Source of the DNA: Gammaproteobacteria bacterium
Lineage (GTDB): Bacteria; Pseudomonadota; Gammaproteobacteria; SZUA-229
NCBI GenBank assembly: GCA_015488885.1
Contig: WFMW01000031.1
Location: 5,566-69,565, forward strand
Reading direction: 5' to 3'
DNA: 64,000 nucleotides
The translations under genes were made by a program, and so were the position numbers. Positions 4,678 through 64,000 of the stretch are shown piece after piece; within the stretch, counting starts at the first letter, position 1, and every line of letters starts with the position of its first letter. The notes under the pieces were generated by a model, which did not search any database, was not told the origin of the DNA, and saw nothing but the letters and a program-made list of their open reading frames with translations.

Positions 4678-6513
4678 TCAGGCAGGTTTTTGACCTGTTT
4701 GTATAGGTGGAGCGATAGACGCAGTGGCATTTTTATCTTTACCAATAAATTCCACTGTCTGGCATTCACGGAAAATACGCCGAGTACAGGTCTGGCAGAT
4801 GGATTTATCCAGCTTCTGGAAGATGGCATGCAAAGCTGCGGATTTGCCCTGAAAGACATGTCGAGGATCGATTCTCTCCATAGCGTGACCACTTTCAAGC
4901 GAATCCCATAAACCTTTCTTCACGTTAATAAGATACAGACCGCCGCCACGAGCACGGCGTTTTACCGCTTCATTGGCAATAACCTCGGCAGCAGCCAGGT
5001 CGGCAAAGCTGATTCCCTGTGCGACAATCGCCAGATGTTTCGCCTGTGGTTGCTGCCTTTCGATTCTGGCAAATTCTTCAAGAAGATACGATACCGAACC
5101 AAAGAACAGCGAACCATCTATGCGCATAATGTGTAATTGTGGACATTCGACAAGACGGCCACCGCCATCAGAAAATTTACGGTTGGGTAATGCGGGGTCT
5201 GGAACCCGGGTAACAATTCTGGGGTGCGAAACCCGCATCAGGTACAGCACCAGTGACAACAGGATACCGGCAAGGATAGCGAATTCCAGGTCGAGGAACA
5301 ATGCACCGAGAAAAGTAAGAGCAAAAATGGCACGCTCCGAGTTATTGGACTTGATGATATGTTTAATGGTGGGAATATCAATGAGTCCCCAGGCCACAAT
5401 AAACAGAATACCTGCCATGGCCGCATTGGGTAGATAAGCGACCAGCGGGGCGATAGCCAGGACAATAACGATTTCCAGAGAGCCAGCAAGCATTGCGCTC
5501 ACAGGAGTTTTGGCACCGGCCTGATAGTTCAGGCTGGAACGGTTGAAGGAGCCGGTTGCAACATAGGCTGAAAAGAAACTACCGGCCATATTGGACAAGC
5601 CCTGACCAATAAATTCCTGATTACCATCAATCATCTGGCCACTACGAATACCAATCGCTCGCCCGATAGAAACCGCCTCGGTGAGGGCAAACAGGGTCAT
5701 TGCTACCGCAGCAGGAGCCAGTTCTTTAATCGTGGTCAAGCTAAAGTCAGGCATGGAGATTGGTGGCAAAGTCTGGGGAATGGCACCAACCATGGGGATA
5801 TGTGTTGCCCCCGTTCCATAGAAGTAGTTTAATGCAAGGCTGGTGAACGATCCACTTAACAGCGCTACAATCAAATGTGGAATTTTGGGGAATAAACGTC
5901 TACTTAACAGACCTGAGAGCAGGGTCGCCAGCGCCACCGTTAGCACAAACATATTTATATGTGGTATCTGTTGCCAGAAACTCGATAGCGTATCAAGAAG
6001 GTGTCCGCCACGAGGAATCGGAACCCCGAAAAAGTTTTTCAGCTGTTTACTGGCAATAAGAATAGCAGCACCAGTGGTAAAACCAACCACCACCGAGTGG
6101 GAGATAAAATTAACAATGGTGCCCATACGCACCAGCCCCAGCGTTAATTCAATCAGGCCAACCATAAAGGTTAGGGTTAAAGCCAGGCCGACGTATTCCG
6201 GGCTTAGTGGTTCGGCAAAAACGCTCAGCGAAGATAGCAAAACAATGGATGCGGCAGTCGTCGGCCCCGACATCAGGTGCCAGGACGAGCCAAAAAAGGC
6301 GGCAACGATAGGGGGGATCATACCGGCATACAGGCCATATTGTGGTGGCATTCCAGCAATGGATGCAAAGGCAACCGCCTGGGGGATAACCACAATCGCA
6401 ACGGTTATTCCCGATATGATATCAGCACGCAGAGTTTGTCTGGTAACACGGTCTTTCCACTGAAGAAAAGGCAGCAGACGTAACTGCCATTCAGCGTATT
6501 GTTTATGGGACAT
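4678..6513 (-). CDS. SulP-family anion transporter with a C-terminal STAS domain (DauA/sulfate permease-like)
   Basis: The N-terminal region matches the SulP signature (GITVAIVVIPQAVAFASIAGMPPQYGLYAG). Multiple TM segments and a STAS region are present. A 60-aa Cys-containing tail (CQTCTRRIFRECQ) follows. Confidence 0.85.
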   Translation of the reverse strand: MSHKQYAEWQLRLLPFLQWKDRVTRQTLRADIISGITVAIVVIPQAVAFASIAGMPPQYGLYAGMIPPIVAAFFGSSWHLMSGPTTAASIVLLSSLSVFAEPLSPEYVGLALTLTFMVGLIELTLGLVRMGTIVNFISHSVVVGFTTGAAILIASKQLKNFFGVPIPRGGHLLDTLSSFWQQIPHINMFVLTVALATLLSGLLSRRLFPKIPHLIVALLSGSFTSLALNYFYGTGATHIPMVGAIPQTLPPISMPDFSLTTIKELAPAAVAMTLFALTEAVSIGRAIGIRSGQMIDGNQEFIGQGLSNMAGSFFSAYVATGSFNRSSLNYQAGAKTPVSAMLAGSLEIVIVLAIAPLVAYLPNAAMAGILFIVAWGLIDIPTIKHIIKSNNSERAIFALTFLGALFLDLEFAILAGILLSLVLYLMRVSHPRIVTRVPDPALPNRKFSDGGGRLVECPQLHIMRIDGSLFFGSVSYLLEEFARIERQQPQAKHLAIVAQGISFADLAAAEVIANEAVKRRARGGGLYLINVKKGLWDSLESGHAMERIDPRHVFQGKSAALHAIFQKLDKSICQTCTRRIFRECQTVEFIGKDKNATASIAPPIQTGQKPA

Positions 6514-25837: not shown

Positions 25838-26385
25838 TGATAAAACAGTGGGTAAAATTGAAAAGCCTGGCAACGACGGCTCTTATTTTGACTAGTTTTT
25901 CCTTACATGCCAGCTGGTTGCAGCCACCTTTAAGCCATACGCTGACAGCGGTTAAAACACCCTTTATGGCAAAAGATTTTTCGCTACCAGATGTAGATGA
26001 AGAAATGGTTAAGTTTTCTGCTTACCGGGGAAAAGTTATTTTAATCAATTTCTGGGCGACCTGGTGCCCACCCTGTGTGCGTGAAATGCCTTCAATGGAA
26101 CGTTTATACCGGCAATTAAAAAAAGATAAGTTTGTGGTAATAGCGATTGATCAGATGGAAGATGAGGATCAGGTATTTGCTTTTACCGGCCAGCTATCTA
26201 TTGAGCCAACCTTTACCCTGTTGCTGGATAAAAACAGTAAAGTAGCAAACAGTTACGGGGTCAAAGGTTTACCCACAACCTTTATTATTGATAAAAAAGG
26301 CAGGGTACGTTACCGGGCCATTGGCGGGCGCGAACTTGACCATGCTCAGATAAAAAAAATCATTAAGCAGTTAATTGCAGAATAA
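25837..26385 (+). CDS. TlpA/ResA-like periplasmic thiol:disulfide oxidoreductase
   Basis: Signal peptide. WATWCPPC thioredoxin-fold CxxC motif. 182 aa. Confidence 0.8.
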   Translation: MIKQWVKLKSLATTALILTSFSLHASWLQPPLSHTLTAVKTPFMAKDFSLPDVDEEMVKFSAYRGKVILINFWATWCPPCVREMPSMERLYRQLKKDKFVVIAIDQMEDEDQVFAFTGQLSIEPTFTLLLDKNSKVANSYGVKGLPTTFIIDKKGRVRYRAIGGRELDHAQIKKIIKQLIAE

Positions 26386-26413
26386 ATATTTTTTGGTTTT
26401 GTTTAGAGCCTCT

Positions 26414-26908
26414 TTAGCCTGTACTGGGCAGATCAATACCCGCAAAGGCATCATCGGCAAAGTCATCTTCTGTATCTGCATCGTCTTCCGATAATTCCAC
26501 CTGCTCAAGTAAATTAATAGCAATGGCAATAAAATCACTGTCTGTAATAATACCTACCAGCTGGTGGTCAGACATGACAGGTAAACAGCCATATTTATGT
26601 TCCTGAAGATACAGTGCTGCCTGTCGTAATGAGTTTGCTGGATGCACGACTTTAACATTTCTAATCATAATATCACCAAGATGGATATTATTCGCAGAAC
26701 CATCAGTATCTGCAAGATGAGATAAGTCAGGTTCGCTGGCAGCCAGTACATCACGTTGTGTTACTAGCCCGAGCAGGTGGTTCTGCTTATCGGTAATCGG
26801 AATATGGCGAATATGTTTTGTTGTCATAATTGCCCGTGCGGCTTCCATCGAGTCAGCTTCACGCATAGTGTAAGGATCTGCTGTCATAAATTCTTCTATA
26901 GTAATCAT
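26414..26908 (-). CDS. CBS-pair domain protein with an acidic C-terminal tail
   Basis: Two CBS motifs (HIRHIPITD..LLGLVTQRDVL and GCLPVMSDHQLVGIITDSD). Poly-Asp/Glu tail. Confidence 0.7.
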   Translation of the reverse strand: MITIEEFMTADPYTMREADSMEAARAIMTTKHIRHIPITDKQNHLLGLVTQRDVLAASEPDLSHLADTDGSANNIHLGDIMIRNVKVVHPANSLRQAALYLQEHKYGCLPVMSDHQLVGIITDSDFIAIAINLLEQVELSEDDADTEDDFADDAFAGIDLPSTG

Positions 26909-27015
26909 TTTTTCTTTGTCCTGCCTGTTATGTTACATGCGACTATATTTACAGATATTGAGAAAAAGAATATTGATTAAAGTCAATCAGCCAGAAAAAA
27001 TGTTTACCACCTGAG

Positions 27016-27672
27016 CTATTGCACCGGTAACACATAGAAATAGACGGCAATAAAATGGCAGCAGCTGCCCAACAACACAAACAGGTGAAAAATAGCATGG
27101 TTAAAGCTAATCTTTTTAATACTGTATAAAATGGCACCCAATGTGTAAGCCAGGCCGCCTGCAACCAGCCAGAACAAGCCCTCAGCAGGCAGCCTGTGAA
27201 TTAACGGATTTATCGCAAAGATAATTATCCAGCCCATAAAAACATACATTAGTGTGGACAGTAAATCATATTTTCCGGTAAAAAATAACTTTAATATAAT
27301 GCCAGTCAGTGCCAGCCCCCAGCTAAATCCAAACAGCACCCAACCACTTACCCCATTTAAAGTTACCAAAGTAAACGGGGTATAAGTGCCTGCAATCAGG
27401 ACATAGATCATGGCATGGTCAAGCACCTGCAAGCGGCGCCGCAGGACAGGTTCCTTTGCGACATGATAGAGGGTTGAAGCAGCATAGAGAAGAATTAAAC
27501 TGCTGCCAAAAATACTGAAACTGACGATATGCCACGCATTGCCATACAGGCTGGCGCGTACCACCAATAACACTAAAGCTACAATACTTAAAATAAAGCC
27601 GATAGCATGGGAAAGAATATTCATTCTTTCTTCAATCGAAGAGTACAACTCAATCTCGTATTTTTGTTGCAT
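27016..27672 (-). CDS. Hemolysin III / PAQR family membrane protein
   Basis: 7-TM profile with conserved His residues (NILSHAIG, HAIFHLFV). Confidence 0.85.
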   Translation of the reverse strand: MQQKYEIELYSSIEERMNILSHAIGFILSIVALVLLVVRASLYGNAWHIVSFSIFGSSLILLYAASTLYHVAKEPVLRRRLQVLDHAMIYVLIAGTYTPFTLVTLNGVSGWVLFGFSWGLALTGIILKLFFTGKYDLLSTLMYVFMGWIIIFAINPLIHRLPAEGLFWLVAGGLAYTLGAILYSIKKISFNHAIFHLFVLLGSCCHFIAVYFYVLPVQ

Positions 27673-27835
27673 ATTGCCTCAAAAAAGATTTATTATACAA
27701 TTTGCGTGAAAATTTCATAGAGATATGTGGACGTGACAGGCACGATCAGTTATTGATCTGTTTTTTGATCTGCATCAAGATAAATATAACTTGATATAGA
27801 TAACATATAGATTATAAAATTTTATTCAAGGGGAT

Positions 27836-27853
27836 TATATTCAAGCTTGAATA
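27836..27853. promoter_or_regulatory. 18-bp perfect palindrome ATATTCAAGCTTGAATAT
   Basis: Exact dyad symmetry in the intergenic region between the hemolysin-III gene and the small ORF at 27894. Confidence 0.3.
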
Positions 27854-27893
27854 TTATGTTAAAGGCAATTTTTTATTTAAAGCAGGTAAATAC

Positions 27894-28023
27894 GATGGAA
27901 GTTTTTAAAAATTTGTTTTCTGACTATACCGGGCTGTTAACCATTGGCGTGATTGTATTTATGCTGGTGATGATGGCCTTTCTAGCGGTAATGTTTATCA
28001 AAAAAATGAACAACCGGGAATAA
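27894..28023 (+). pseudogene. Possible frameshifted gene for a 42-aa single-TM micro-protein
   Basis: The first 22 codons (MEVFKNLFSDYTGLLTIGVIVF) continue seamlessly as a TM helix in the +1 frame after TTTAATG (MLVMMAFLAVMFIKKMNNRE-stop at 28021). The in-frame continuation is low-complexity and overlaps the downstream gene. Confidence 0.25.
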
Positions 28024-35360: not shown

Positions 35361-36404
35361 TCAATAGATTTGAATACGCGGTAATGCCGAGGTATTTTTT
35401 ACCAGTTTTCCAAATGCGCTTAATTCCAGCCCCAGAGTGCGGGCAACCTTGACAAACGCATTGCTGTGGATGTTTTCAACCGCAACCAGCAGGCCACCAG
35501 ACGTTTGCGGGTCGCAGAGAATTTTTTTCTGCAAGGCGGTCATTTCCCCTGTCTGATGGCCATAGCTGTCAAAATTACGCTGCGCACCACCCGGTGAACA
35601 GCCCAGTGAAATATAGTTTTCAATGCCGCTTAGTTTAGGTACAGCCTGATAGTTTACCTGCGCACTTACATCACTGGCTTTACATATTTCCAGTAAATGA
35701 CCCAATAAGCCAAAACCGGTTACATCGGTCATCGCCGTAACGTAAGGCAGTTTTGCGAAGATAGCACCGGCTGAATTCAGCTGACACATGGTGTTAATCG
35801 CAATACGCGCATGAGCCTTTTCCAGACATTTCTTTTTTTCAGCCGTGGTTAAAATACCAATACCCAGCGGTTTGGTTAAAAATAACTGACAACCAGCTTT
35901 GGCCTGGTTGTTGCGTTTCAGGTGAATCGTATCAACCTGGCCGGTTACCGCCAGACCAAACAACGGTTCGGGAGCATCAATAGAGTGTCCGCCAGCCAGT
36001 GGAATACTGGCCAGCTTGCAGGCGTAACGTCCGCCTTCGATAACCTGTGCAGCTATATCGGCTCCCAGCCTGTTAATTGGCCAGCCGAAAATAGCAATGG
36101 CCATTAATGGTGTACCGCCCATAGCGTAAATATCACTGATTGCATTGGTCGCTGCAATTTGACCAAATTCAAATGGATCATCCACAATCGGCATAAAAAA
36201 ATCGGTGGTGCTGATAACAGAGCGCCCCTCTCCCAGATCAAATACTGCTGCATCATCCATGGTATCGTTACCTACCAGCAGTTGAGGGCAGGAAACCGGC
36301 AATGCTGATGTGTGCAGAATTTTCTCGAGTATCTGCGGCGCAATTTTGCAACCACAGCCAGCGCCATGGCTGTATTCGGTTAGTTTTATTTTAGCTGTTG
36401 ACAT
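35361..36404 (-). CDS. selD: Selenide, water dikinase (Cys-type)
   Basis: N-terminal [17 protein letters not shown], near-identical to the E. coli SelD active site. AIR-synthase-related fold. Confidence 0.9.
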
Positions 36405-36827
36405 GAAAAATATGCAGATGCTTTCCTGTTTAACGCCGACATCATTTCGGGCAAACAGATAATACTTAACCCGAGCGATGATGCCTGTCGATAATAGTCA
36501 TCCACCTCCTCACCACCCTGTTTCTGTATACATTTTTTAATGAATGCGGATGAATCAAAAAAACATGCATGATGAATTTTCTCTTTCTTCCACAATCATT
36601 TCCGATATTTCTTTACCCGTTCCAACAACTTTATTCACTTTTACTGCCAGGATGGTTGGCTCACTGTTTCTTTATTGACGGGTATTATTTCTGCCAGAAC
36701 CTCAAAAAAGATATTTTCTTATAAAGTGTACCACAGGCTTGTCCAGCAACCGGATAAGATCGTGGTTCGCTTCGCTCTCACAATCTATCCTTATTCGTTT
36801 TAGGTTTTAATATTGAATAATTCATTG

Positions 36828-37259
36828 CTATTTTTGAGGTGGAGGCATTTCTTCAAATGCAGGAACACTTTTATCCATAAAATCCCATTTGGGTTTTCTT
36901 TTATTGTAAACAATGGCATTCGGTTTAAACCAGGAGCTATCATCAAGTGTTCCAGCAGAAACACTGATAGCATCCACAACCACATTACTTGTTCCAAAAA
37001 GACGGCTGCCACAACTGGGGCAAAAATATCTTGTAATTTTTGATCCTGTATCTGTTGTTGATTCAAAAGAACTGACTTCACCTTCGATTTTTACATCATC
37101 TCTATTGAAGAATGCATTAGAAGAATGGCCAGTTCCCGTGCTTTTCCTACAGTCATCACAATGACACTGCCCCATTCTCACTGGTTGAGATGTGATTGTA
37201 TACCTTACTGCTCCACATAAGCACGACCCTGAAGCAAAGGGTTTATTTTCTAAGTCCAC
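36828..37259 (-). CDS. GFA (glutathione-dependent formaldehyde-activating / CENP-V) family zinc protein
   Basis: CLCGAV...CHCDDC...CPSCGSRLF Zn-binding Cys pattern. The start is taken at a GTG preceded by GGAG; the ORF track's upstream ATG at 37343 is an alternative. Confidence 0.7.
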   Translation of the reverse strand: MDLENKPFASGSCLCGAVRYTITSQPVRMGQCHCDDCRKSTGTGHSSNAFFNRDDVKIEGEVSSFESTTDTGSKITRYFCPSCGSRLFGTSNVVVDAISVSAGTLDDSSWFKPNAIVYNKRKPKWDFMDKSVPAFEEMPPPQK

Positions 37260-37372
37260 TATATTCTCCAAAAAACGTGATTTCCGATTCAGACCTAACG
37301 CAGTTTTTAGCGGCAAAAAATGGTTTGCTATAATGCACAGCAAACTCTTTTTTGTCCACTTGAAAACACTTG

Positions 37373-37666
37373 TTATATGTAATTTTTAATTGATTCAAAT
37401 TCTTTTGCTGCCATAGTTGGAATAAACTCTACTACGTCATAGTTTGCGACATTAGCAATCTTAAATGGATCTTCATTAATAATTGCATCCACTTCTTCTT
37501 TATTAGAAGCATTAACCAATATAATTCCTCCTGTTCGTGGTACTTTACGCCCAGAGGCAATAAATTTTCCAGTAGCATAATATTTTTCAAGATAAGAAAT
37601 GTGATCGCTAATATGCCTATCAACTTCCGATAATTCCGTTTTGTATGTTAAAGATATGATAAACAT
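37373..37666 (-). CDS. YciI-like (Dabb fold) protein
   Basis: 97 aa. The YciI family pattern, with its conserved His, appears in the N-terminal strand (HISYLEKYYATGKFIASGR). Confidence 0.75.
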   Translation of the reverse strand: MFIISLTYKTELSEVDRHISDHISYLEKYYATGKFIASGRKVPRTGGIILVNASNKEEVDAIINEDPFKIANVANYDVVEFIPTMAAKEFESIKNYI

Positions 37667-37693
37667 TTAATACTCCGTTTATATAACATCTTA

Positions 37694-37730
37694 GCATTTA
37701 TACACTGTGCGGAGCATGGTGTATAAATGC
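37694..37730. promoter_or_regulatory. 12-bp perfect inverted repeat GCATTTATACAC-N13-GTGTATAAATGC upstream of the yciI-like/GFA operon
   Basis: Exact dyad 28-64 bp upstream of the yciI-like start codon. Its AT-rich stem argues for an operator rather than a terminator. Confidence 0.3.
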
Positions 37731-38317
37731 CTAAGGTGGATAAAACTGTCAGTCTGGTATTCCCGTTATTTGTTCTTCTTTCCACGCTGTCAATCGCCTG
37801 TTTTTAAGCCATCTGCCCTACTGTGTTTGCGGTTTCAGGCCGGTTATTTTATATGACATGATAAACCCGTTATCGGCTTTCTGACAACCAGTAAATATCT
37901 CACGATGCCGGTGTTAATCGTGTTTTTTGTCGCTATGCACACATCCTCTGTCGTCGTTCTTTTTCTGATGGAATGAGTCCAACCAGATGCAGGTAGCCAT
38001 AATGGCGAACTCGCATGAAGCCTTTGGCAACAGAAAACGGCGCAGGAACCCGGTGCCTGCCCGTTGCATAAATTTTGCTGACTGTGCCGATAGTCTTTAT
38101 AGTAGGCCACACACTGCCATTAGCCATTACTATAACTTGATGCAGAACGGGCTGATTAAAACTGTTCTGCGTCAAGAAGATCGCCTGCAGATAAAAATGA
38201 ATGCCAGCAGCCTCTTCATCAATAACTTACATTGATATGGTAAATCAGCGGAAACAATCATTTTAGGTCAGCTTTATTCATAAGCCAGCCCGAATACGCT
38301 AAAATCACTTCTTTTTT

Positions 38318-42610: not shown

Positions 42611-45125
42611 GGATGCTGTTGGCGATTCTATGAGTTTACACTCACCACTTAATTACATCGCCAGAAAACTGCTTTATCTATGGATAAAAACGGACGTTCT
42701 GCATAGCGGAGAAGTTCTCAGGCATGCTGATGAAAACAACACGCTGGTGTATGTACTGGCTGAGCGTTCATGGGCGGATTTGCTGGTACTGGAACAGGAG
42801 TGTAAGCGCCTGCATCTACCCATGCCACTGGCACATTTAAGTTCAGCATTATTTAATAGCAGGTGCCGAGTTTATACCGTAGAACACAAGCGACCACTAA
42901 AAGCCTGGCTGCAACAAAGGCCTAAACGCTCTGCCATGCTTGGTGATTTACTACATGGATTAATACAATCACCACATCAGGATATCTTATTTATACCCGT
43001 CTCCATCTTCTGGGGCCGACCGGTGGTAAAACAGAAACACTGGTTAAATGTTCTGTTTGCAGACACCTGGGGATTAGCCGGTCGTACCCGGCGATTTTTT
43101 ACTATTTTATTTAATGGTAAACATACTCTGGTACAGTTCTCGGGTGCTATTTCTTTCCGTCAACAAATCAATCAATCGCTAAATGATGGCTCCTTGTTAG
43201 ATAAGAATACCATCATTGATAACACCCAGACATTATTAGCTACCCGCCTGAATGAAATAAAAACAGCGACGCTGGGACCAGATGTGTCGCATCGGCGTAC
43301 CTTGATAAGAAAACTGTTATCCAGATCCGAGGTGGAGACAGCAATACAACAGCTTGCCGAAGAAAAACAAATACCGAACTATCAGGCAACCAGACAGGCA
43401 CAGAAATATCTGCTGGAAATTGTTGCCAACTGCAATGACATCACTATTCAGTTATTGCAGCGTGTGCTCACTGCCTTCTGGCACAGGTTTTACGCTGGCA
43501 TTGATATTTACCACAGCAAAAAACTCGCTACCCTGGCCCTCAGCCACGAACTGATTTATGTGCCTTGCCATCGCAGCCATATCGACTACCTGCTGTTATC
43601 CTATGTAATACATGCTGAAGGTCTTGCCATCCCCTATATCGCCGCCGGTAAAAACCTTAATATGCCCGTAATTGGCCCGATACTACGTAAGGGCGGAGCT
43701 TTTTTTATCCGTCGTACCTTCAAGGATAATCTTTTATATTCCACGGTTATTTTTGAATATCTGGCATCTCTGGTAAACATGGGAATGCCGGTTGAATATT
43801 TTATTGAAGGCGGACGTAGCCGCACTGGCCGACTGTTAAAGCCTAAACCCGGTATGTTAGCTATGACAATCCGTGCATTTCTCAAATACCGTCAACGACC
43901 TGTCGCCTTTATTCCAGTTTCTATTGCCTATGAAAAAATGATTGAAGGGCATGCCTATCTGGCCGAACTGGAAGGCGATGATAAAAAATCTGAAAATTTA
44001 TTTACTTCGATTAAAGCCTTTTTTCATATACGTGGCTTTTATGGCCGCGTAGCAACCAGCTTTGGCGAACCGGTTCTGCTTAATGATATTCTTAAACAAA
44101 CCAGACCTGACTGGCAGAATGAAAATTTTGATGATAAAAATCGGCCCGACTGGTTGATTTCTGCTGTCAACACAACAGCCAGCTGTATCATGCATAATAT
44201 TAATCAGACTACACATGTTAACGCAACCAGCCTGATTGCCACCGCATTGCTAGCAACCGACAATCAGGCCATGGATGAAGGTGAGTTACAACGCACATTG
44301 AGCGTTTACCTCATGCTGATAAAACAGATAAATACATCAGCTAATATTACCCTTACCACACTGAATGCACATGAACAGATACAGCGTGCCGAAAAATTAA
44401 AACTGGTCAAACGCCGCCAGCATGAAATGGGAGATTTTATTTATCTGGAACGTCCAACGGCAATATTATTAACGTATTATCGAAATAATATTTTACATCT
44501 AATGACCTTACCTTCACTGGTGGCCTGCTGTTTCACCAATACCAACACCATTAATCGCGAAAAAATAATAAATTATATCGCCATTGTTTACCCTTTTTTA
44601 GAAGCAGAGTTTTATCTTGATAAGCAAGATGAGTCACTCGAAACTATCGTCGATAAAATTTTAAATCAATTTGTTGATATGGGGTTATTGTTAAAATGTA
44701 CCGCATCAAATGTCTTTTCAAAACCAGGCCTTAATTCAATGAAACATGCACAAGTTTTATACCTGCAGAAAGTCATCTCGCCAGTACTTGAACTTTATTA
44801 TATTATTTTTGCCTTGCTGGCAAATCAGCAAGCTGATGCACCAACACGCCAAAAACTTGAAAACCAGTGTCACCTGATAGCACAACGCATCTCACTTATT
44901 TATGAAATCAATTCGCCGGACTTTTTCGATAAAAAGTTAATTATTAATTTTATCGATACTTTAATAGCGCTGGGGTACGTCAATCTGGATAACAATAAAC
45001 TGACAATATGCCAGCCTGCAATTGAAAAAGGACGGCAGGCACGTCACCTGCTGGATAAAAAAATGCAGTACAATATATTACAGATGCTGCGTTCAGCCAA
45101 GGAGCCTCTAAAGACCGCTGAATAA
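42609..45125 (+). CDS. plsB: Glycerol-3-phosphate 1-O-acyltransferase
   Basis: VPCHRSHIDYLLLSYV (HxxxxD), FFIRRTF and YFIEGGRSRTGRLL motifs, collinear with E. coli PlsB. 838 aa. Confidence 0.9.
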   Translation: MDAVGDSMSLHSPLNYIARKLLYLWIKTDVLHSGEVLRHADENNTLVYVLAERSWADLLVLEQECKRLHLPMPLAHLSSALFNSRCRVYTVEHKRPLKAWLQQRPKRSAMLGDLLHGLIQSPHQDILFIPVSIFWGRPVVKQKHWLNVLFADTWGLAGRTRRFFTILFNGKHTLVQFSGAISFRQQINQSLNDGSLLDKNTIIDNTQTLLATRLNEIKTATLGPDVSHRRTLIRKLLSRSEVETAIQQLAEEKQIPNYQATRQAQKYLLEIVANCNDITIQLLQRVLTAFWHRFYAGIDIYHSKKLATLALSHELIYVPCHRSHIDYLLLSYVIHAEGLAIPYIAAGKNLNMPVIGPILRKGGAFFIRRTFKDNLLYSTVIFEYLASLVNMGMPVEYFIEGGRSRTGRLLKPKPGMLAMTIRAFLKYRQRPVAFIPVSIAYEKMIEGHAYLAELEGDDKKSENLFTSIKAFFHIRGFYGRVATSFGEPVLLNDILKQTRPDWQNENFDDKNRPDWLISAVNTTASCIMHNINQTTHVNATSLIATALLATDNQAMDEGELQRTLSVYLMLIKQINTSANITLTTLNAHEQIQRAEKLKLVKRRQHEMGDFIYLERPTAILLTYYRNNILHLMTLPSLVACCFTNTNTINREKIINYIAIVYPFLEAEFYLDKQDESLETIVDKILNQFVDMGLLLKCTASNVFSKPGLNSMKHAQVLYLQKVISPVLELYYIIFALLANQQADAPTRQKLENQCHLIAQRISLIYEINSPDFFDKKLIINFIDTLIALGYVNLDNNKLTICQPAIEKGRQARHLLDKKMQYNILQMLRSAKEPLKTAE

Positions 45126-45138
45126 CGGGGCAACCACC

Positions 45139-47889
45139 ATGTCAATACTGACTCATAAAATAAAGCAATTTTATAACAACAACCGACTTAAATCACGCCT
45201 GCTTATTGCTGCCTTTATAGTTACCGCATTACTGGTTGTTTTTCGCATAACACTGCCTTTTACTGTTATTTATAGCACCACATCATGGCTGGCGAAACAG
45301 GGTATAAACACACATATAGAGGACATTGATTTCGATTTTATAAACGGTAGAATGTTGCTGAAAAATGCCAGTGGTACAGATAAGAATCATCATAAATTTA
45401 ATATTGGAAATATAAAGCTGTCATGGCGATGGGCTCCATTATCTGACAAAATTATCGACATTACCGGTGTAGAAATACAAAACATGAAAATAGACATCCA
45501 GCGTTATACCGACACCACCATTATTTCCGGCATTAATCTGACAGAGCTATCCTCCACTAATAAAAATACCGGCAAAACGATCAGCAAAAAAACGTCTGCT
45601 GCTGATAATAGTAAGATTCCACAATGGGGCGCATCCATTGGAAGCATAAGTTTTTCCAACACTCATCTCTGCTACCAGCAATATGCAGGCGCTTTCAAAA
45701 CATCATCGCACAAAAACCCTCAGCTGGATTATTGTGCAAAGCTGGATAAACTCCTGTGGCAGGGAAAATTGAATTATGCGATAAGCAAAAAAGTATCGAC
45801 CAGACAAAAGCTGCCAATTACTATCCGTGGAGATTTCAAAATTTCAGGACTTGCTATTCTGGATAAACGATTTAACCGTTATTTAATTCGCAGCAAGCAA
45901 GCCCGTATCAGTCGTCTTGCTGTTAATGGCCTTGATAATATTTCCATTGATGCTATTCATATCAATGATCTTTCTGCTTTACAACGTGGCGACAAAAAGC
46001 ATTTTGATACAGTACGATTAAAAGATGCTGGCTTTGATAAAATAAAATTACAGCATTTAAACAAGCTTGGCATCAATAACATAAGCCTTTCATCACCTGA
46101 TCTGTTTATCAAAAAAGACAAAAAGGGTAATTGGGAATATAAGCAATGGTTACACCTCCCCGCAACACAAAACCGACATACCAAAAATCGCTCGACACCA
46201 ATAAAAAACTCCGCCATTACAGGATATTCACTGGCAGTCAACATAGCGGCTATACGCATTAATAACTCGGATTTTTGCTATGATGACACTAGCACCGCTT
46301 TTTATTATTGCCTCAATCAGAACCGTTTTGACTGGAAGGGAAAAATACATTTTTCCACAAAAAATAACGCCCTCAACCTTACTGGCGATCTTGCCCTGGA
46401 TAAAACCAGTATCAGCAATCGAATCCTCCAGCGTCAACTGCTTTCCTTAAACAAACTTGTACTAACTCAACTTTCTATTAACAACTTTAATCATATTACT
46501 GTCAACGATATCCGCCTGGAAAATCTTCATGCCCTTCAACGTTCCAGAAAAATGAATGATGACACGCTCTGGTTCAGTAATCTCAATATTAATGCTGTCA
46601 GGTTTATCAATACAGATAATATAGCTATTAATACAATTAACCTGACTGAACCTGGCATACAGGTTTCAAAAAATATTAATGGTAACTGGGAATTTAATAA
46701 ATGGCTGGAAAACATAAACAGGAAACCCGACCTAAAAACGCCCTCCCCAGTTATTAAAAAATACAGGCAGAAAAAAACTGACATCAATAAAAAACCATTT
46801 ATTTTTTCAATAAATAAATTAGCTATAACATCTGATCAGAATATGATTTACCGAGATAAAAGTTTAAAACCAGAACTTCTGGTCGGTTTAAAACAAATTT
46901 CTCTTCATGCTGAAAATATCAATAATGCTAGACCGAAACAAAAGATTCAGTTCAAACTATATGCAAAAAGTACCCGACATGCCACCATTAAACTGGCTGG
47001 ATATATTCTGCCATTTAGGGCGGAACCTTCATTTAATGCCGCCGGTAATCTGCTTGGTCTTGATTTACGCGCCGCATCACCAGCCGTGCGAAAGGCAACA
47101 GGTCATATTATAGAAAGCGGTCAAATGGATGCCAGGCTGAAATTACTGGCTAAAAACGGTATTTTACACAGCAATATTAACCTGACTTTGTACCAGTTTA
47201 AACTTAAAGCGATCAGCCAGAAAGATGCCACTGCACTTGATAAAATATTTGGTATGCCGGTTAATCAGTCTCTGGCATTATTACGTAACAAAGACGGGGA
47301 TATTCATCTTGATATACCAGTCACTGGCAATATTGACAAACCTGATTTTGACCCAGTTAATGCCATAATCAAAGCAACCACAAAAGCAACAACATTTACT
47401 CTGATTACCTTTTTTACGCCCTACGGTCTGGTCTATGCCGGTAGTAACCTGCTCTACGATCTGGCTACTGCTGTAGATTTCAAGCCAGTATTGTTTATGC
47501 CAGGTTCAACCTTACTGTCGGCAACAAACAGACGACAGCTTGATAAACTTGCCGTTATGCTCAATAAAAAACCACAGTTGCATTTAACCCTCTGTGGCAG
47601 TAGCAACCAGGCCGACTGGAAAAAACTGTTCCCAGAAACTCGTGACAAACAAGCCGACAGTAAAACAGAAGAACAGAATGGCATTCAGCCTACCAGAAAT
47701 ACAGTAAAAATCAGACGCAACACAGATAGAGCAAAACGTGAGACGTTGATAAAACTGGCGACTAAACGTCAGCAGACAATAAAATCCTACCTGATTGATA
47801 AAGCTAAAACTGGTGCTGACCGATTAATATTATGTACACCAGAATTTAATACCGGGAAGGCTATTGCTGGTGTTAATATCAATATCTAA
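45139..47889 (+). CDS. AsmA-like / DUF748-family large envelope protein with an OmpA-like C-terminal region
   Basis: N-terminal TM anchor, a long Asn-rich beta-rich body, and a C-terminal segment resembling OmpA-like peptidoglycan-binding domains. Confidence 0.5.
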   Translation: MSILTHKIKQFYNNNRLKSRLLIAAFIVTALLVVFRITLPFTVIYSTTSWLAKQGINTHIEDIDFDFINGRMLLKNASGTDKNHHKFNIGNIKLSWRWAPLSDKIIDITGVEIQNMKIDIQRYTDTTIISGINLTELSSTNKNTGKTISKKTSAADNSKIPQWGASIGSISFSNTHLCYQQYAGAFKTSSHKNPQLDYCAKLDKLLWQGKLNYAISKKVSTRQKLPITIRGDFKISGLAILDKRFNRYLIRSKQARISRLAVNGLDNISIDAIHINDLSALQRGDKKHFDTVRLKDAGFDKIKLQHLNKLGINNISLSSPDLFIKKDKKGNWEYKQWLHLPATQNRHTKNRSTPIKNSAITGYSLAVNIAAIRINNSDFCYDDTSTAFYYCLNQNRFDWKGKIHFSTKNNALNLTGDLALDKTSISNRILQRQLLSLNKLVLTQLSINNFNHITVNDIRLENLHALQRSRKMNDDTLWFSNLNINAVRFINTDNIAINTINLTEPGIQVSKNINGNWEFNKWLENINRKPDLKTPSPVIKKYRQKKTDINKKPFIFSINKLAITSDQNMIYRDKSLKPELLVGLKQISLHAENINNARPKQKIQFKLYAKSTRHATIKLAGYILPFRAEPSFNAAGNLLGLDLRAASPAVRKATGHIIESGQMDARLKLLAKNGILHSNINLTLYQFKLKAISQKDATALDKIFGMPVNQSLALLRNKDGDIHLDIPVTGNIDKPDFDPVNAIIKATTKATTFTLITFFTPYGLVYAGSNLLYDLATAVDFKPVLFMPGSTLLSATNRRQLDKLAVMLNKKPQLHLTLCGSSNQADWKKLFPETRDKQADSKTEEQNGIQPTRNTVKIRRNTDRAKRETLIKLATKRQQTIKSYLIDKAKTGADRLILCTPEFNTGKAIAGVNINI

Positions 47890-48095
47890 GCAACCTTTGA
47901 GAAAGCCGTGAATACGCATCTTGCGTTCAGATTTTCCTTAGCACTCACTTGTCACAGAGCCTTTATGATATGCATTCCCACGCGGAGCGACAATAGCATT
48001 CACGTAAGGCAATTTTATATTTTACCGTCATTCCTGCATGCTATCTCCGCCAAGCTGGGCACAGGCTTTAGCAGGAATCCAGGAGCCTGTTAGAT

Positions 48096-58054: not shown

Positions 58055-58588
58055 TTAAATTTCTTCAATAGTGCGGGTATGATTGGTGTAGATACAAATA
58101 TCGCCTGCAATAGCCAGGCTTTTTTCAACCATTTCGTGGGCAGTCATTTCAGTATTATCAAACAACGCGCGGGCTGCAGCCTGTGCATAAGGACCGCCAG
58201 AACCAATAGCGATTAAATCGTCTACGGTATCAATGACATCACCGGTTCCTGATATCAGTAATGAGTTATTGGCATCGGCAACAATTAACATGGCCTCGAG
58301 TTTGCGCAACATTTTATCCGTGCGCCAGTCTTTTGCCAGCTCAACAGCAGCTCGACGTAGCTGACCATTATGCCGCTCCAGCATCGCCTCAAAACGTTCC
58401 AGTAAAGTAAAGGCATCGGCGGTGGCTCCGGCAAACCCGGCAATCACCTTATTATTGTATATTTTGCGTACTTTGGTGGCATTGCCTTTCATAACCGTGT
58501 TGCCCAGTGTTACCTGGCCATCACCGCCAACGACTACCTTGCCATGCCGACGCACCGTGAGGATTGTTGTGCCGTGAAATGTTTCCAC
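58055..58588 (-). CDS. hslV: ATP-dependent protease subunit HslV
   Basis: N-terminal TTILTVRR (Thr nucleophile). 177 aa. Confidence 0.95.
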
Positions 58589-58621
58589 GCCTGTCTCCAG
58601 CTTTGTTTCAGAATCCGGTGA

Positions 58622-58662
58622 TTTTACACCATGGGGAGCCGAAAGGTAGAACTTGTTGTGGA
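58622..58662 (-). promoter_or_regulatory. Possible sigma32-type heat-shock promoter for hslVU (CCCCATGG -10-like element)
   Basis: On the minus strand, CCCCATGG about 45 bp upstream of the hslV start matches the CCCCATNT -10 consensus. The -35 region is poorly matched. Confidence 0.25.
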
Positions 58663-58678
58663 TAAACCGAGCTGTGGG

Positions 58679-59452
58679 TTATGGCTGCGGACGCACAAAG
58701 GTCCATTGCCGGTCATCAGACAGTTCCCGGTTAAACCGGTAGCCGCCTAATCTGAATTTTTTTATATCTTCAGCATTTTCAATCCGGTTACGGATAATAT
58801 AATCCGCCATCATTCCCCGCGCCCGTTTGGCAAATATGGCTATAATCCGGGTTTTACCGTCGCGGGTTTCCTTGAAATGAATATTTAGCAGGCGACCTTC
58901 AAGCAAGCCGGTTTTAATAACCTTAAAATATTCCTTTGATGCCAGGTTAACCAGTACCGGCTGTGGCTGTTTGTTTAGCTCTTTGTTCAGCTTATCGGTA
59001 ATCCGCCTGCCCCAGAACTGGTACAGATTGTCGCCGCGTGGATTAGCCAGTTTTGTTTTCATTTCCAGCCGGTATGGCTGTATCAGATCCAGTGGCCGCA
59101 GATAACCGTATAAACCTGATAGTATGCGCAGGTGATTTTGGGCAAAATCAAAATCAGCTGCGGTAAACTGCGCCAGATCAATGCCACTATAGACATCACC
59201 CTTAAAGGCAAAAATCGCCTGTTTGGCATTTTTAGTGGTAAACGGCAGGCTGAATTTTCTAAAGCGCCCGGCATTCAGGCTGGCAATCTTGTCACTGACC
59301 GCCATTAAATTTTTAATATCATCCGCTTTGAGTTTTTTCAGCACCTTGAAAAGTATTGCCGATTCGGTCAAATCCCGGGGTTGACTGTGTTTGCTGATCA
59401 GCGGTGGTTCAATAAAGTCCTGACCTTTTGAAGGTGAAAGTGCAATAATCAT
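58679..59452 (-). CDS. yaaA: Peroxide stress protein YaaA (UPF0246/DUF328)
   Basis: MIIALSPSK N-terminus and conserved family body. Confidence 0.85.
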   Translation of the reverse strand: MIIALSPSKGQDFIEPPLISKHSQPRDLTESAILFKVLKKLKADDIKNLMAVSDKIASLNAGRFRKFSLPFTTKNAKQAIFAFKGDVYSGIDLAQFTAADFDFAQNHLRILSGLYGYLRPLDLIQPYRLEMKTKLANPRGDNLYQFWGRRITDKLNKELNKQPQPVLVNLASKEYFKVIKTGLLEGRLLNIHFKETRDGKTRIIAIFAKRARGMMADYIIRNRIENAEDIKKFRLGGYRFNRELSDDRQWTFVRPQP

Positions 59453-59517
59453 CGCGCTATTATAACGATAATCAGGGATAGATGCCGAATTAATAGATAC
59501 GTTCTAATCTATTTGGG

Positions 59518-60453
59518 CTATTTTTTTCTGGCGCGCGGATGCGCACTGTCATATACCCCGGCAAGATGCTGAAAATCAAGATGGGTATAAATCTGCGTGG
59601 TGCTTAAATTGGCATGGCCAAGCAAGGTCTGCACGGCACGCAAATCGCTGGATGATTCCAGAAGATGCGAGGCAAAGGAATGGCGCAACATGTGCGGATA
59701 AAGCCTGCTCCCCAGACCCTGCTTCTGCGCCCATGATTTTAAGCGCAACTGCACATTGCGATTGCTGATACGCTTGCCCCGCTGACTGATAAAAACGGCC
59801 TTGTCATCAGCTTTCGTTATTAATGAACGATGCTGCAAATACTGCTCCAGCGCCATTCTCGCCTTGTTGCCAAACGGTACTTGACGGGTTTTACTGCCTT
59901 TTCCCGTTACCCGTACGATCTGTTGCTGCCAGTCTATATCCGCCAGTTCCAGCCGGGTTAATTCTGTCAGTCGCAGGCCACACGCATACAACAGTTCAAT
60001 AATAGCTTTATCGCGGCTGTCGATAAAACTGTCTGCCTGTACATTTAATAACTGATTTACCTGATCCGCATGCAAGGTATTAGGCAGACGTTTGGGCTTT
60101 CTGGGAGCGGGCACACCGATAGCCGGGTTATTTTTTGCCAGTTTATGACGACATAAAAAACCATACAGGGAACGAATCGCCGATAATAATCGTTGTAAAC
60201 TGCGCCCGGACAAGCCCTGCCGGTGCAGGCGCGCAATACTGGCACGCAGTTGTGACGGGGTAATCGCGTCCCAGTTAATTTTAGCCTGCCGGTCTAACTC
60301 CAGGCTGATTAAAAATTGATGAATATCGCTTTGGTAAGCTTTTAAGGTATGTATCGAGTAGCGTTTTTCATTTTGCAAATAGGCATAAAATCGCCGCAAG
60401 CCATCATCTTTGACAGCTATTTTTTCCGCAGTATCTGATAATGACGAGGTCAT
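59518..60453 (-). CDS. xerC: Tyrosine recombinase XerC
   Basis: Phage-integrase family R...HxxR...Y catalytic residues (HMLRHSFASHLL, TQIYTHL). Conserved dapF-DUF484-xerC context. Confidence 0.9.
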   Translation of the reverse strand: MTSSLSDTAEKIAVKDDGLRRFYAYLQNEKRYSIHTLKAYQSDIHQFLISLELDRQAKINWDAITPSQLRASIARLHRQGLSGRSLQRLLSAIRSLYGFLCRHKLAKNNPAIGVPAPRKPKRLPNTLHADQVNQLLNVQADSFIDSRDKAIIELLYACGLRLTELTRLELADIDWQQQIVRVTGKGSKTRQVPFGNKARMALEQYLQHRSLITKADDKAVFISQRGKRISNRNVQLRLKSWAQKQGLGSRLYPHMLRHSFASHLLESSSDLRAVQTLLGHANLSTTQIYTHLDFQHLAGVYDSAHPRARKK

Positions 60454-60474
60454 CGTTCCGTATTTATGTGCATT

Positions 60475-61221
60475 TTACGGATGCTGGCTGGCGCAATCAT
60501 TCGCTTCCAGATGCACGGCCAGTGCTGCACTGACCAGATCGCCTATCTGCGCCAGAAAATGGGTTCCCATGGTTGCCTGAAAACGCCTGTTATTATTACT
60601 CCCCAGACCAATCAGGCCCAAATCGGCACCTGCTGTTAATGGAATAATTGCCGCCGAGGCAATCTTTGCTGCATTATCCGTAAATAAAAAGGCTTTCTGT
60701 TCATCAATACTCCGGCCACACACGGGGTTTTTATGTTCCAGCATGGTTTTAAATGCATGGATACCGGTATCATCTCTGGCCACAAACAAACCCGGGTATT
60801 GTTTAACCAGCGACCGGTTTTCGGTAAACAGGCGAATTACCGCATAATCGGCTTTTAGTTCATTGCTTAACTCATCCAGCACAATACAGACCACATCATC
60901 CAGATCATGTGCACCGAGCAGGTTGATGGCAATACGCTGCCGACTTTGCGCCAGCCGCTCATTATCACGAGCCACGGCCATCAGTTCGCTTAAATGCTCA
61001 TCAAGCCGGGCATTTTTTTCGCGTAACACCTTTACCTGACGTTCGACCAGAGAGACTGCCGGGCCACTGTCATGAGGTATTTCAAGTATCGCCAGCAATT
61101 CCGGGTGATCGCGTAAAATCGCCGGATTTTCTTTTAACTGCTTGACTAATGCCTGTTCGTCTGTTGATACTGTTTCAGATACTGCTTCGGTTTTATGTTT
61201 TCTTTTCACTGATTTTGTCAC
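60475..61221 (-). CDS. DUF484 (YigA-like, GAF-like) protein
   Basis: Conserved position between dapF and xerC. Coiled-coil N-terminus. Confidence 0.7.
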
Positions 61222-62072
61222 CCTGTTGTTTCCCCCCTGTAAACACGGCTTACCGGCCCGGTCATAAATAAGGAACAGCCCTCACCTGCCCAGGCGATAC
61301 GCAGTTCGCCGCCAGACAGCGGTACCTTGACATCGTTATCAAGCAATCCACGTCGAATGCCGACAGCCACCGCAGCACTGGCACCGGTTCCACATGCCAG
61401 GGTTTCACCCGCACCACGCTCATAGACCCGCAAACGGATGGTGTGACGATTGACAATTTGCATAAAGCCAACATTCACTCCCTGAGGAAAATGACTATCT
61501 GCACCAATCAAGGCTCCCGTTGCTGCCACATCGGTATTTTCAATGTCATCAACCTGCAACACAGCATGGGGATTACCCATGGATACAATATCTATAGTAT
61601 AAATATGCTGATTAAGCTTTAATTTGTAATGCCCCGGTTCCCGCGTACCTGACACCACGGCATCTTCATTATTGATAAATGGCAGGCTTTCAGGACGAAA
61701 ATTGGGTTCCCCCATATCAACAGTGACATCACCATTGTCTTCTACCTGCAACCGGATCAACCCACCCATGGTTTCAACTGGAATAAGCCGATGCTCGGTC
61801 AGCCCCGCGTCACGCACAAACACCGCAAAACATCGCGCGCCGTTGCCGCACTGTTCTACCTCACTGCCATCGGCATTAAATATACGATAGCGAAACTCAG
61901 CGGCTGGTGTCTGTGGCGCTTCCACCAGCAACAACTGATCAAAACCAACCCCGGTATGACGGTCTGCGAGTTGCTGAATTTGCTCAGGGCTCAGATCAAT
62001 GGCCTGTTCAATGCCATTGATCACCATAAAGTCATTACCCAGACCATGCATTTTTGTAAAAGCAATCTTCAT
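61218..62072 (-). CDS. dapF: Diaminopimelate epimerase
   Basis: [11 protein letters not shown], plus active-site Cys motifs ([14 protein letters not shown]). Confidence 0.9.
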
Positions 62073-62239
62073 AACCGGGGAGCATAACCGGCAATAAGGC
62101 CCGGTTCAACCTGAAACAGCCCCTTGCGTACTAAAATAACAATAAAACCCGTTTCCTCTATGCATTATCATTTTATTATGCTAACTTAGACATCTGTCTG
62201 ACTTATATTGATTTCCACCTTATCCCCGGAGGTAATACC

Positions 62240-62908
62240 ATGTCCACAACACCTCGCTCATCTTTACAGGAAGCTATTGATGCCTTCCAACAGGAAATGT
62301 TGCCGCAAATTTCTGATAATGTAGCTGCAACCATGCAGGCAGCCATGACTGACTTAAAACAGTCGGGTCTGGAAAACAACGCTAAAACAACAGGTGACAT
62401 CTGCCCGGATTTCACCTTACCCAATGCCGATAAAAAAGCGGTTTCGCTGGACGCTTTACTAGAAAAAGGCCCCGTGGTCATCAGTTTTTATCGCGGCGCC
62501 TGGTGCCCGTATTGCAACCTGGAAATCAATGCGCTGCAGGCAAAACTGGCAGCTATACAGTCACAGGGTGCAAGCCTGATTGCCATTACCCCGCAACTGC
62601 CGGATAAATCACTGGAACAGATTAAAGAAAAATCGCTCGGCTTTGAGATTTTAAGCGACCAGAAAAATCGTCTTGCACGACAATTCGGCCTGGTTTTTAC
62701 CTTACCCGAAACGTTACGACCTGTTTATACTGATTGGGGCATTGATATACCCGAACATAATGGCGATGACTCGTTTGAGTTACCCGTTCCAGCCACGTAT
62801 ATTGTGGGGCAGGATAAAAAAATCCGCTACGCCTTTGTTAATGTCGATTATACCCAGCGGCTGGAACCGGACATTATTATTGAACAACTGGAAGCCTGCA
62901 GGACTTAA
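62240..62908 (+). CDS. Peroxiredoxin-like (AhpC/TSA-redoxin family) protein with an N-terminal extension
   Basis: Thioredoxin-fold motif FYRGAWCPYC. 222 aa. Confidence 0.7.
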   Translation: MSTTPRSSLQEAIDAFQQEMLPQISDNVAATMQAAMTDLKQSGLENNAKTTGDICPDFTLPNADKKAVSLDALLEKGPVVISFYRGAWCPYCNLEINALQAKLAAIQSQGASLIAITPQLPDKSLEQIKEKSLGFEILSDQKNRLARQFGLVFTLPETLRPVYTDWGIDIPEHNGDDSFELPVPATYIVGQDKKIRYAFVNVDYTQRLEPDIIIEQLEACRT

Positions 62909-63051
62909 TCCATCGTAACGAGAGGGCGCTGATTTGAGGGAAGTGGCACGACGATAGATAAGCATATTGCGTTTACGAACCAAAGGATGAGCCAGACTCC
63001 TAGATGATATATCTGCTATAATAGCTTATAAGAGATGATATAAGCACTATA

Positions 63052-64000
63052 ATGAAGATACCAGACCCCACTACGCTTGTTGTATTCGCCTGGCTCGCTG
63101 ATCGCTACATTCCTGCAGGCAAGTTGCGGGTGTTCGGTCGTCAGGCTGAATTCTGGTACGGGGATCACTTCAGGCAATATGGTTATGCGCTTGACCCCAT
63201 CAAGCTACCACTCACGAGTGAAGTCTTTACGGCTGAAGGTTTACAGGGAGATCTCGGCGTACTGGGTGATGCGTTACCTGATAGCTGGGGGCGTTATCTT
63301 ATCAAACGTCAGTACCATCAATCTTTATCTGATCTGCAAATACTAAGTCTGGATGCCTCCAGACAGCGAATGGGTGGACTTTTTTTCTCCTGTGAGCTCG
63401 ATGATTCTCCCGTGGATAATACTCACGACCTGAAATGGATGCATCAGTTCTCACGGTGGTTAACTGATAAAAGTAATGATTTTCCAGAAAGGATGGAGCT
63501 TGGCTCCAGTGCGGGTGGTGCTAAACCTAAATGCCTCATTCAGATTGATGAAATAGAGTGGATTGTAAAATTCCAACCGGCAAACGAGCCTGTGAATAAA
63601 CCCGCTATTGAGCACGGAACGTTAAAACTGGCCGAGGCGTGCGGTATTCCCGTGCCTGATAATCGACTGATTGACCTGCCTGATAAGAGACAGGCGCTTT
63701 TGGTTAAACGCTTTGATCGTGACCGGAAAAAACCGCTTCACTACATGAGCGGGCAAACGCTATGCGGCGTATTATTCAATGACGCAGGGCAGGTGATTAA
63801 TGATACACGCAGTTACCTTATTCTCGCTGACGCATTAAGTAAAATGAGCACAGCCCCACAAACTGACAGAGTCGATCTGTTTCGTCGTATCGTTTTTAAT
63901 ATCCTGGTAAACAATCATGATGATCACGCTAAAAACCACGGCGTAGTACGTTCACTGGATGGTAAGTGGCGGCTGTCAAAAGCCTTTGACCTGGTCGCAG
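63052..64000 (+). CDS. HipA-like Ser/Thr kinase toxin homologue (3' end beyond the window)
   Basis: HipA N-terminal motifs (LGDALPDSWGR) and a catalytic-loop NNHDDHAKN. The frame is open to the window end. No hipB-like gene fits in the 143 bp upstream. Confidence 0.7.
   Translation, partial: MKIPDPTTLVVFAWLADRYIPAGKLRVFGRQAEFWYGDHFRQYGYALDPIKLPLTSEVFTAEGLQGDLGVLGDALPDSWGRYLIKRQYHQSLSDLQILSLDASRQRMGGLFFSCELDDSPVDNTHDLKWMHQFSRWLTDKSNDFPERMELGSSAGGAKPKCLIQIDEIEWIVKFQPANEPVNKPAIEHGTLKLAEACGIPVPDNRLIDLPDKRQALLVKRFDRDRKKPLHYMSGQTLCGVLFNDAGQVINDTRSYLILADALSKMSTAPQTDRVDLFRRIVFNILVNNHDDHAKNHGVVRSLDGKWRLSKAFDLVA

Follow-up and report, generated by a model that had tools for sequence, protein, structure and literature searches.

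A probable reversed-order hipA-hipB toxin-antitoxin module cut by the end of a gammaproteobacterial DNA stretch

Hip modules in which the order of the genes is reversed have been described both as hipAB subclades within the HipA clades V, VI and VII, and as a deep reversed family, HipE (hipEB, clade IX) (Gerdes, Baerentsen & Brodersen, 2021, mBio, PMC8262856). Such modules are rare, as 8 hipAB and 12 hipEB modules make up 20 of the 1,239 Hip modules of that survey (about 1.6 %), and the entry for experimentally characterised reversed-order modules is 'None' (PMC8262856). No experiments on reversed-order Hip modules were found in the later literature searched either.

The locus described here lies at the right-hand end of the window, i.e., the whole stretch of 64,000 nt that was analysed, and very probably corresponds to the promoter region and the first 316 codons of a reversed-order hipA-hipB type II toxin-antitoxin module, cut by the window end. 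The arrangement itself is already catalogued (Gerdes et al., 2021, PMC8262856) and this is no new kind of system. Like the reversed hipAB and hipEB modules (PMC8262856), it opens with the gene of a HipA-type kinase that is full-length and includes N-subdomain 1, and an HTH gene lies directly downstream in the same operon. It may differ from them in that the nearest outgroup of its kinase clade (at most ~38 % identity) consists of canonical hipBA modules with a HipB that is homologous over its full length; for this reason, the clade resembles a reversal within HipA more than it does a deep family.

The HipBA module of E. coli K-12 and that of Shewanella oneidensis share with the window module the full-length kinase fold, the serine of the Gly-rich loop, the DxHxKN motif and the Mg-binding aspartate, as well as an Xre-type HTH partner related to HipB and palindromic operator-like sites over the promoter. 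In the window module, in contrast, the gene order is inverted, hipA and hipB overlap by 17 nt, and identity to these proteins is ~19-20 %. The kinase of the window clade is also shorter than that of E. coli (398 versus 440 aa), and it is associated with two putative operator sites versus four. The HipBA operator reads TATCC-N8-GGATA, which the operator-like dyad of the window clade, AG..GA.AT.TC..CT, does not resemble. The HipBST systems of E. coli O127 and Legionella pneumophila provide, with HipT, the closest PDB kinase core by sequence. However, N-subdomain 1 is missing from HipT and comes from the separate HipS antitoxin, and the HipBST operon comprises three genes, with hipB first; the window module has neither feature.

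The kinase gene and its downstream HipB-like partner

The 316 residues encoded up to the window end (Table 1) match the Pfam HipA_C domain (PF07804) with 134.8 bits (cut-off 30.5, E 4.4e-39), and the full-length homologue P0001 scores 143.2 bits against the same family. The Couple_hipA domain, which covers the N-domain, is found at 18.8 bits, below its cut-off of 22.5, so that the HipA N-domain motifs reported in the earlier note find no Pfam match above threshold; they are nonetheless supported by the predicted fold. For a full-length homologue with 91 % identity, the AF2 model (mean pLDDT 90.9, with lower confidence, 66-68, at residues 141-160) superposes on full-length E. coli HipA over ~430 columns, with a TM score of 0.72-0.74 and a Foldseek E value of 1e-16. 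This match over the full length argues that the window kinase is, as modelled, of the full-length HipA type, a single polypeptide holding both N-subdomain 1 and the kinase core, unlike the core kinases HipT, HipG, HipI, HipJ and HipM.

Table 1. Features of the window at and around the kinase gene (strand: +, forward;., not assigned).
Feature	Position	Strand	Remarks
Peroxiredoxin (prx) gene	62240-62908	+	Pfam AhpC-TSA, E 1.5e-29
Host-specific spacer after the peroxiredoxin gene	62909-63000	.	Outside the cassette; no homology to other clade loci
Site 1, imperfect palindrome with halves TAGATGATA and TATCTGCTA	63001-63018	.	Dyad AG..GA.AT.TC..CT; putative HipB operator, left cassette edge
Direct repeat copy 1, AGATGATATATCTGCTATAAT	63002-63022	+
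Extended -10 element TGCTATAAT	63014-63022	+	No -35; TGCTAT[AT]AT conserved in the clade; putative promoter role
Direct repeat copy 2, AGATGATATAAGCACTATAAT	63033-63053	+	Overlaps the start codon of hipA; putative operator (second, weaker)
5' part of HipA-family Ser/Thr kinase gene (putative toxin)	63052-64000	+	ATG at 63052; 949 nt, 316 of 398 codons, then cut by the window end; translation, Pfam
Gly-rich (P-)loop GSSAGGAKPK, G151-K160	63502-63531	+	Invariant or nearly so in 27 clade proteins
Catalytic loop NNHDDHAKN, N287-N295	63910-63936	+	N288, D290, D291, H292 and N295 invariant in the clade
Mg2+-binding Asp D313, AFDL motif	63988-63990	+	HipA D332 by offset; invariant in 53 sequences

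Three of the canonical motifs of the HipA family, as defined in PMC8262856, are present, namely the Gly-rich loop, HDDHAKN and AFD, and they align to both HipT and HipA. The catalytic loop had already been recognised in the earlier note. D290 corresponds to D309 of E. coli HipA by HMMER residue offset (query 187-315 versus HipA 203-334), and S153 aligns with Ser57 of HipT in the HMMER alignment to 7ab4, which makes it a candidate autophosphorylation site.

Proximity to HipT extends to the whole kinase core, as a PDB sequence search retrieves HipT with an E value of 6e-11 and E. coli HipA with one of 3.5e-5. A three-component module of the HipBST kind had been listed among the possibilities in the earlier note; that the kinase would be neutralised in this way, by a HipS-like protein in place of the HTH protein, nevertheless appears most improbable. 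The match of the AF2 model to HipT is confined to the kinase core (TMq 0.47-0.52) while the model fits HipA over its full length, the kinase has its own N-terminal subdomain, and the operon consists of two genes, with no hipS gene or other ~100-aa HipS ORF. Membership of the HipBST systems was rejected on these grounds.

The remainder of the module can be read in a near-identical contig. Exact-sequence look-up gave no match for the window peroxiredoxin but led, for DapF, to contig JALSUV010000244.1 of assembly GCA_027071015.1 (L169, or L170 when turned to the window orientation), which agrees with window positions 58113-64000 at all but one of 5888 nt (99.98 % identity) and reaches 1555 nt further. 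Its kinase is 398 aa long, is identical to the window protein at 316 of 316 residues and ends at window-equivalent position 64248. A 102-aa ORF at window-equivalent 64232-64540 starts 17 nt inside the kinase gene (the kinase occupies 4940-6136 and the HTH gene 6120-6428 of L170) and is followed by a convergent lysA gene. The 102-aa protein is of the Xre HTH type (Pfam HTH_31, 5e-13); its top NCBIfam match is couple_hipB (9e-12, below cut-off), and its top PDB match is HipB 9u9g_A (1e-4), with the HipB proteins of E. coli and Shewanella coming next. It is thus described here as a HipB-like putative antitoxin, seen beyond the window end and in the near-identical contig only. With an HTH gene directly downstream on the same strand, L170 displays the order of reversed hipAB and hipEB modules. 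Directly upstream, where canonical hipBA modules carry their HTH gene, lies the peroxiredoxin gene, and the 143-nt spacer between it and the kinase (62909-63051) encodes no HTH ORF, in agreement with the earlier claim that it cannot encode a HipB.

These data bear directly on the status of the gene, which had at first been taken for an apparently orphan HipA-like kinase. The kinase assignment stands, but the gene is no orphan, since the HTH gene overlaps its 3' end in the 99.98 %-identical contig, as it does in 13 of 13 loci of the kinase clade (see below); a downstream antitoxin had been one of the options listed. A genuine solo kinase, either controlled in trans or, like YjjJ/HipH, non-toxic and active in signalling, would account for the lack of an upstream antitoxin ORF within the window and for the YjjJ model being the sole NCBIfam match of the kinase. 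The matches to this equivalog (NF007297), however, reach 24.9 and 24.4 bits versus a cut-off of 401 and concern the kinase core only, and the kinase has, according to Pfam, no fused N-terminal HTH domain of the sort found in the monocistronic YjjJ/HipH genes. Together with the downstream HTH gene, this led to the rejection of YjjJ/HipH membership and makes a solo kinase hardly credible.

The putative promoter and operator region

Two direct repeats upstream of the kinase gene, which the earlier note placed at 63002 and 63032, are real, although the second copy is at 63033 and the repeat is longer than first described. Over the 64 kb, exactly two occurrences of the core AGATGATATA are found where 0.10 would be expected, and the repeat extends to 21 nt with 81 % identity between the copies and a spacing of 31 nt. 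In other clade loci the second copy is kept ~31-33 nt after the first. Copy 1 largely coincides with an imperfect palindrome, Site 1, whose dyad columns are invariant or nearly so in 10 loci with kinases that are 49-91 % identical, and whose right half overlaps a perfect extended -10 element, TGCTATAAT. A palindrome that is conserved in the clade and overlaps an extended -10 element suggests that the copy 1 region is probably both promoter and operator, with transcription predicted to start near 63029-63030. Copy 2 keeps the outer dyad only and is half dyad-symmetric, the inner dyad being absent.

A scan for two-hexamer sigma-70 promoters at 63000-63050 returned no -35/-10 pair, and a terminator scan of the promoter region found nothing. 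Scanning of L169 gave no convincing internal promoter, including for hipB, and no convincing terminator, while Rfam searches over the whole 64 kb produced no family at gathering score and no tRNA, rRNA or riboswitch match. The palindrome TATAATAGCTTATA, which had been noted as flanked by the repeats, does lie between the two copies; it was rejected as a regulatory element, being merely TATAA-N4-TTATA in a variable spacer and not conserved in relatives. In one 91 %-identical relative (L166, ~150-190), a third upstream operator-like copy, ATTTATCTGCTGTAAT, is found 25 nt before Site 1; the window carries no such copy.

The alternative that the repeats are a duplicated AT-rich promoter remnant devoid of operator function, regulation being purely post-transcriptional, is quite unlikely, and the data on the dyad itself cut both ways. 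At Site 1, 72 % of the cells are dyad-symmetric versus 23-60 % in slid registers, but no covariation is seen and shuffled controls fail to tell the dyad apart from chance; the loss of the inner dyad from copy 2 also fits a remnant. Against this, both copies hold their position across loci with unrelated flanks and with kinases of only 49-59 % identity, the dyad positions of Site 1 vary little or not at all, and homology between the loci begins exactly at Site 1. We therefore retain a putative HipB operator at Site 1, with a second one at copy 2.

Translation signals also differ between the two genes. For hipA, no Shine-Dalgarno sequence is present within functional reach of the ATG, and the sole purine-rich run, AAGAG, lies ~17-22 nt upstream of it. 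The hipB start codon, on the other hand, is preceded at 7-10 nt, inside the end of hipA, by an SD-like AGGAG in most relatives and by a weaker AGGCG in the window organism.

A clade of hipA-first cassettes

Database searches place the window kinase in a tight clade of 393-399-aa proteins with 44-91 % identity, beyond which identity drops to about 37-38 % or less. The clade is known almost only from metagenomes and metagenome-assembled genomes, and its named members are Gammaproteobacteria. Of the 13 clade loci in which the kinase ORF is intact and sufficient sequence follows it, 13 have the 102-aa HTH gene downstream with the same overlap, and none has an HTH gene upstream. The nearest outgroup kinases display the opposite order, with an HTH gene upstream in 115 of 153 loci and downstream in 0 of 153. 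The upstream HipB proteins of this outgroup are homologous to the downstream protein of the clade from end to end, down to a C-terminal extension that closes with ...DF. The simplest reading of this comparison is that the gene order was swapped once, in the ancestor of the 393-399-aa clade.

Nucleotide homology among the clade loci starts at window-equivalent 63001 and stops at the HTH stop codon (64539-64547), thereby delimiting a 1.54-kb cassette (window-equivalent 63001-64540) with sharp edges. Its flanks are unrelated from one locus to another: mfd in L001, L005 and L167, a MipA-like gene in L003, a VWA gene in L168, and the peroxiredoxin gene and lysA in the window organism. Such unrelated contexts with sharp boundaries indicate that the 1.54-kb unit is a cassette that has moved.

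The horizontal acquisition proposed in the earlier note is thus borne out by the differing genomic contexts, but not on the grounds then given. A switch from about 40 % GC to a clearly higher value within the gene had been described. The kinase fragment has 47.7 % GC, next to 46.8 % for the peroxiredoxin gene and 50.3 % for dapF, and the mean values for the window's 40 long ORFs are 46.2 % GC (sd 2.9) and 44.9 % GC3 (sd 4.0), which gives z scores of +0.5 and +0.16, respectively, for the kinase. The GC or GC3 shift was accordingly rejected. The low value is limited to the intergenic spacer before the kinase (41.3 % GC), and a lower GC content is usual for intergenic spacers and promoter regions. 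Judged by its contexts, the cassette is a case of horizontal transfer without a compositional signature. The two findings that the earlier note had named as speaking against its own interpretation, a hipB-like gene immediately downstream and a uniform GC once computed, were therefore both obtained, the former in the near-identical contig. The apparent orphan toxin is a window-edge artefact and the apparent GC island an artefact of judging composition by eye, and no new biology is needed to explain either of them. Elsewhere in the window, the lowest-GC 2-kb bins are 26001-28000, 36001-38000 and 44001-48000 (0.39-0.40 versus a mean of 0.45); the ORFs at 42.6-47.9 kb encode a PlsB-like glycerol-3-phosphate acyltransferase and a DUF748 protein and are not obviously foreign.

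Several observations concern the surroundings of the cassette and its variants. In the window (61218-64000) and its continuation (L170, 6120-7441), the peroxiredoxin gene, hipA and hipB, all on the forward strand, sit between lysA and dapF, both on the reverse strand, and break the same-strand run lysA, dapF, DUF484 gene, xerC, yaaA. Given this interruption, the peroxiredoxin gene may belong to an older insertion at the same spot. In L003 (7580-9117) and L005 (5627-7258), two unrelated contexts, a canonical hipBA pair, whose kinase (431 or 424 aa) carries a Couple_hipA domain and is preceded by the HTH gene, stands tail-to-tail directly after the reversed hipAB cassette, so that two Hip modules lie side by side. 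Downstream of the cassette in L001 (7493-9901), a ParD-like/zeta-toxin pair and a TacA/GNAT-acetyltransferase pair form a small toxin-antitoxin island by mfd, and in L167 a GNAT gene adjoins hipB. In L007 (320-1811), the kinase ORF is stopped after 246 codons and the hipB-like ORF (1482-1811) is intact, a probable case of a decayed toxin with its antitoxin retained. Finally, in L006 (~220-330) and L089 (~460-570), the ORF now begins ~90 nt downstream of where hipA originally started (ATGAAAAAAACCGAT..., as in L168); the sequence between the two starts is unrelated, which points to a rearranged kinase 5' end in these Thiohalophilus-like contigs.

The same components could also serve mainly in abortive-infection defence against phages instead of persistence or stabilisation. 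The cassette is compact and mobile with sharp boundaries, it adjoins other toxin-antitoxin pairs in L001, L003 and L005, PADLOC gives weak matches to the candidate system PDC-M03A (E 3e-4), and phage defence has been proposed for some Hip families (PMC8262856). The PADLOC matches are marginal, however, searches of viral contigs and plasmids found no clade members, and the neighbours in the window are housekeeping genes (dapF, lysA and a peroxiredoxin gene); a primarily defensive role is therefore considered rather unlikely.

Proposed mechanism and significance

By analogy with characterised HipBA relatives, which target GltX, TrpS or LysS (summarised in PMC8262856), the kinase would phosphorylate an aminoacyl-tRNA synthetase, thereby halting translation and triggering the stringent response. 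The HipB-like protein would, as a dimer, bind and neutralise the kinase and also repress the operon through the palindrome over the extended -10 element (63001-63022) and through copy 2 over the start codon (63033-63053), a binding that would occlude both the -10 element and the transcript start. As the toxin gene comes first in the operon, an excess of antitoxin would have to come from translation, and could be secured by the contrast between hipA, without a Shine-Dalgarno sequence, and hipB, with its SD-like AGG(A/C)G.

The sole details that are mildly new are the conserved candidate pair of promoter and operator and the sharp delimitation of the cassette. One may tentatively go further and regard the 393-399-aa clade as an additional, independent and unnamed reversal of hipBA, apart from the catalogued hipAB subclades and from HipE, with a precisely bounded 1.54-kb cassette and a control logic of its own: the extended -10 promoter would be embedded in an operator palindrome, a further operator copy would cover the start codon, the toxin cistron would lack a Shine-Dalgarno sequence, and translation of the antitoxin would begin within the toxin gene. 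This reading is somewhat doubtful at this stage, but, if true, it would provide a clean natural system in which to test by what means an antitoxin excess is maintained in toxin-first operons. The compact cassette of this clade could in any case serve to examine how self-poisoning is avoided when the toxin gene comes first, and which tRNA synthetase is targeted.
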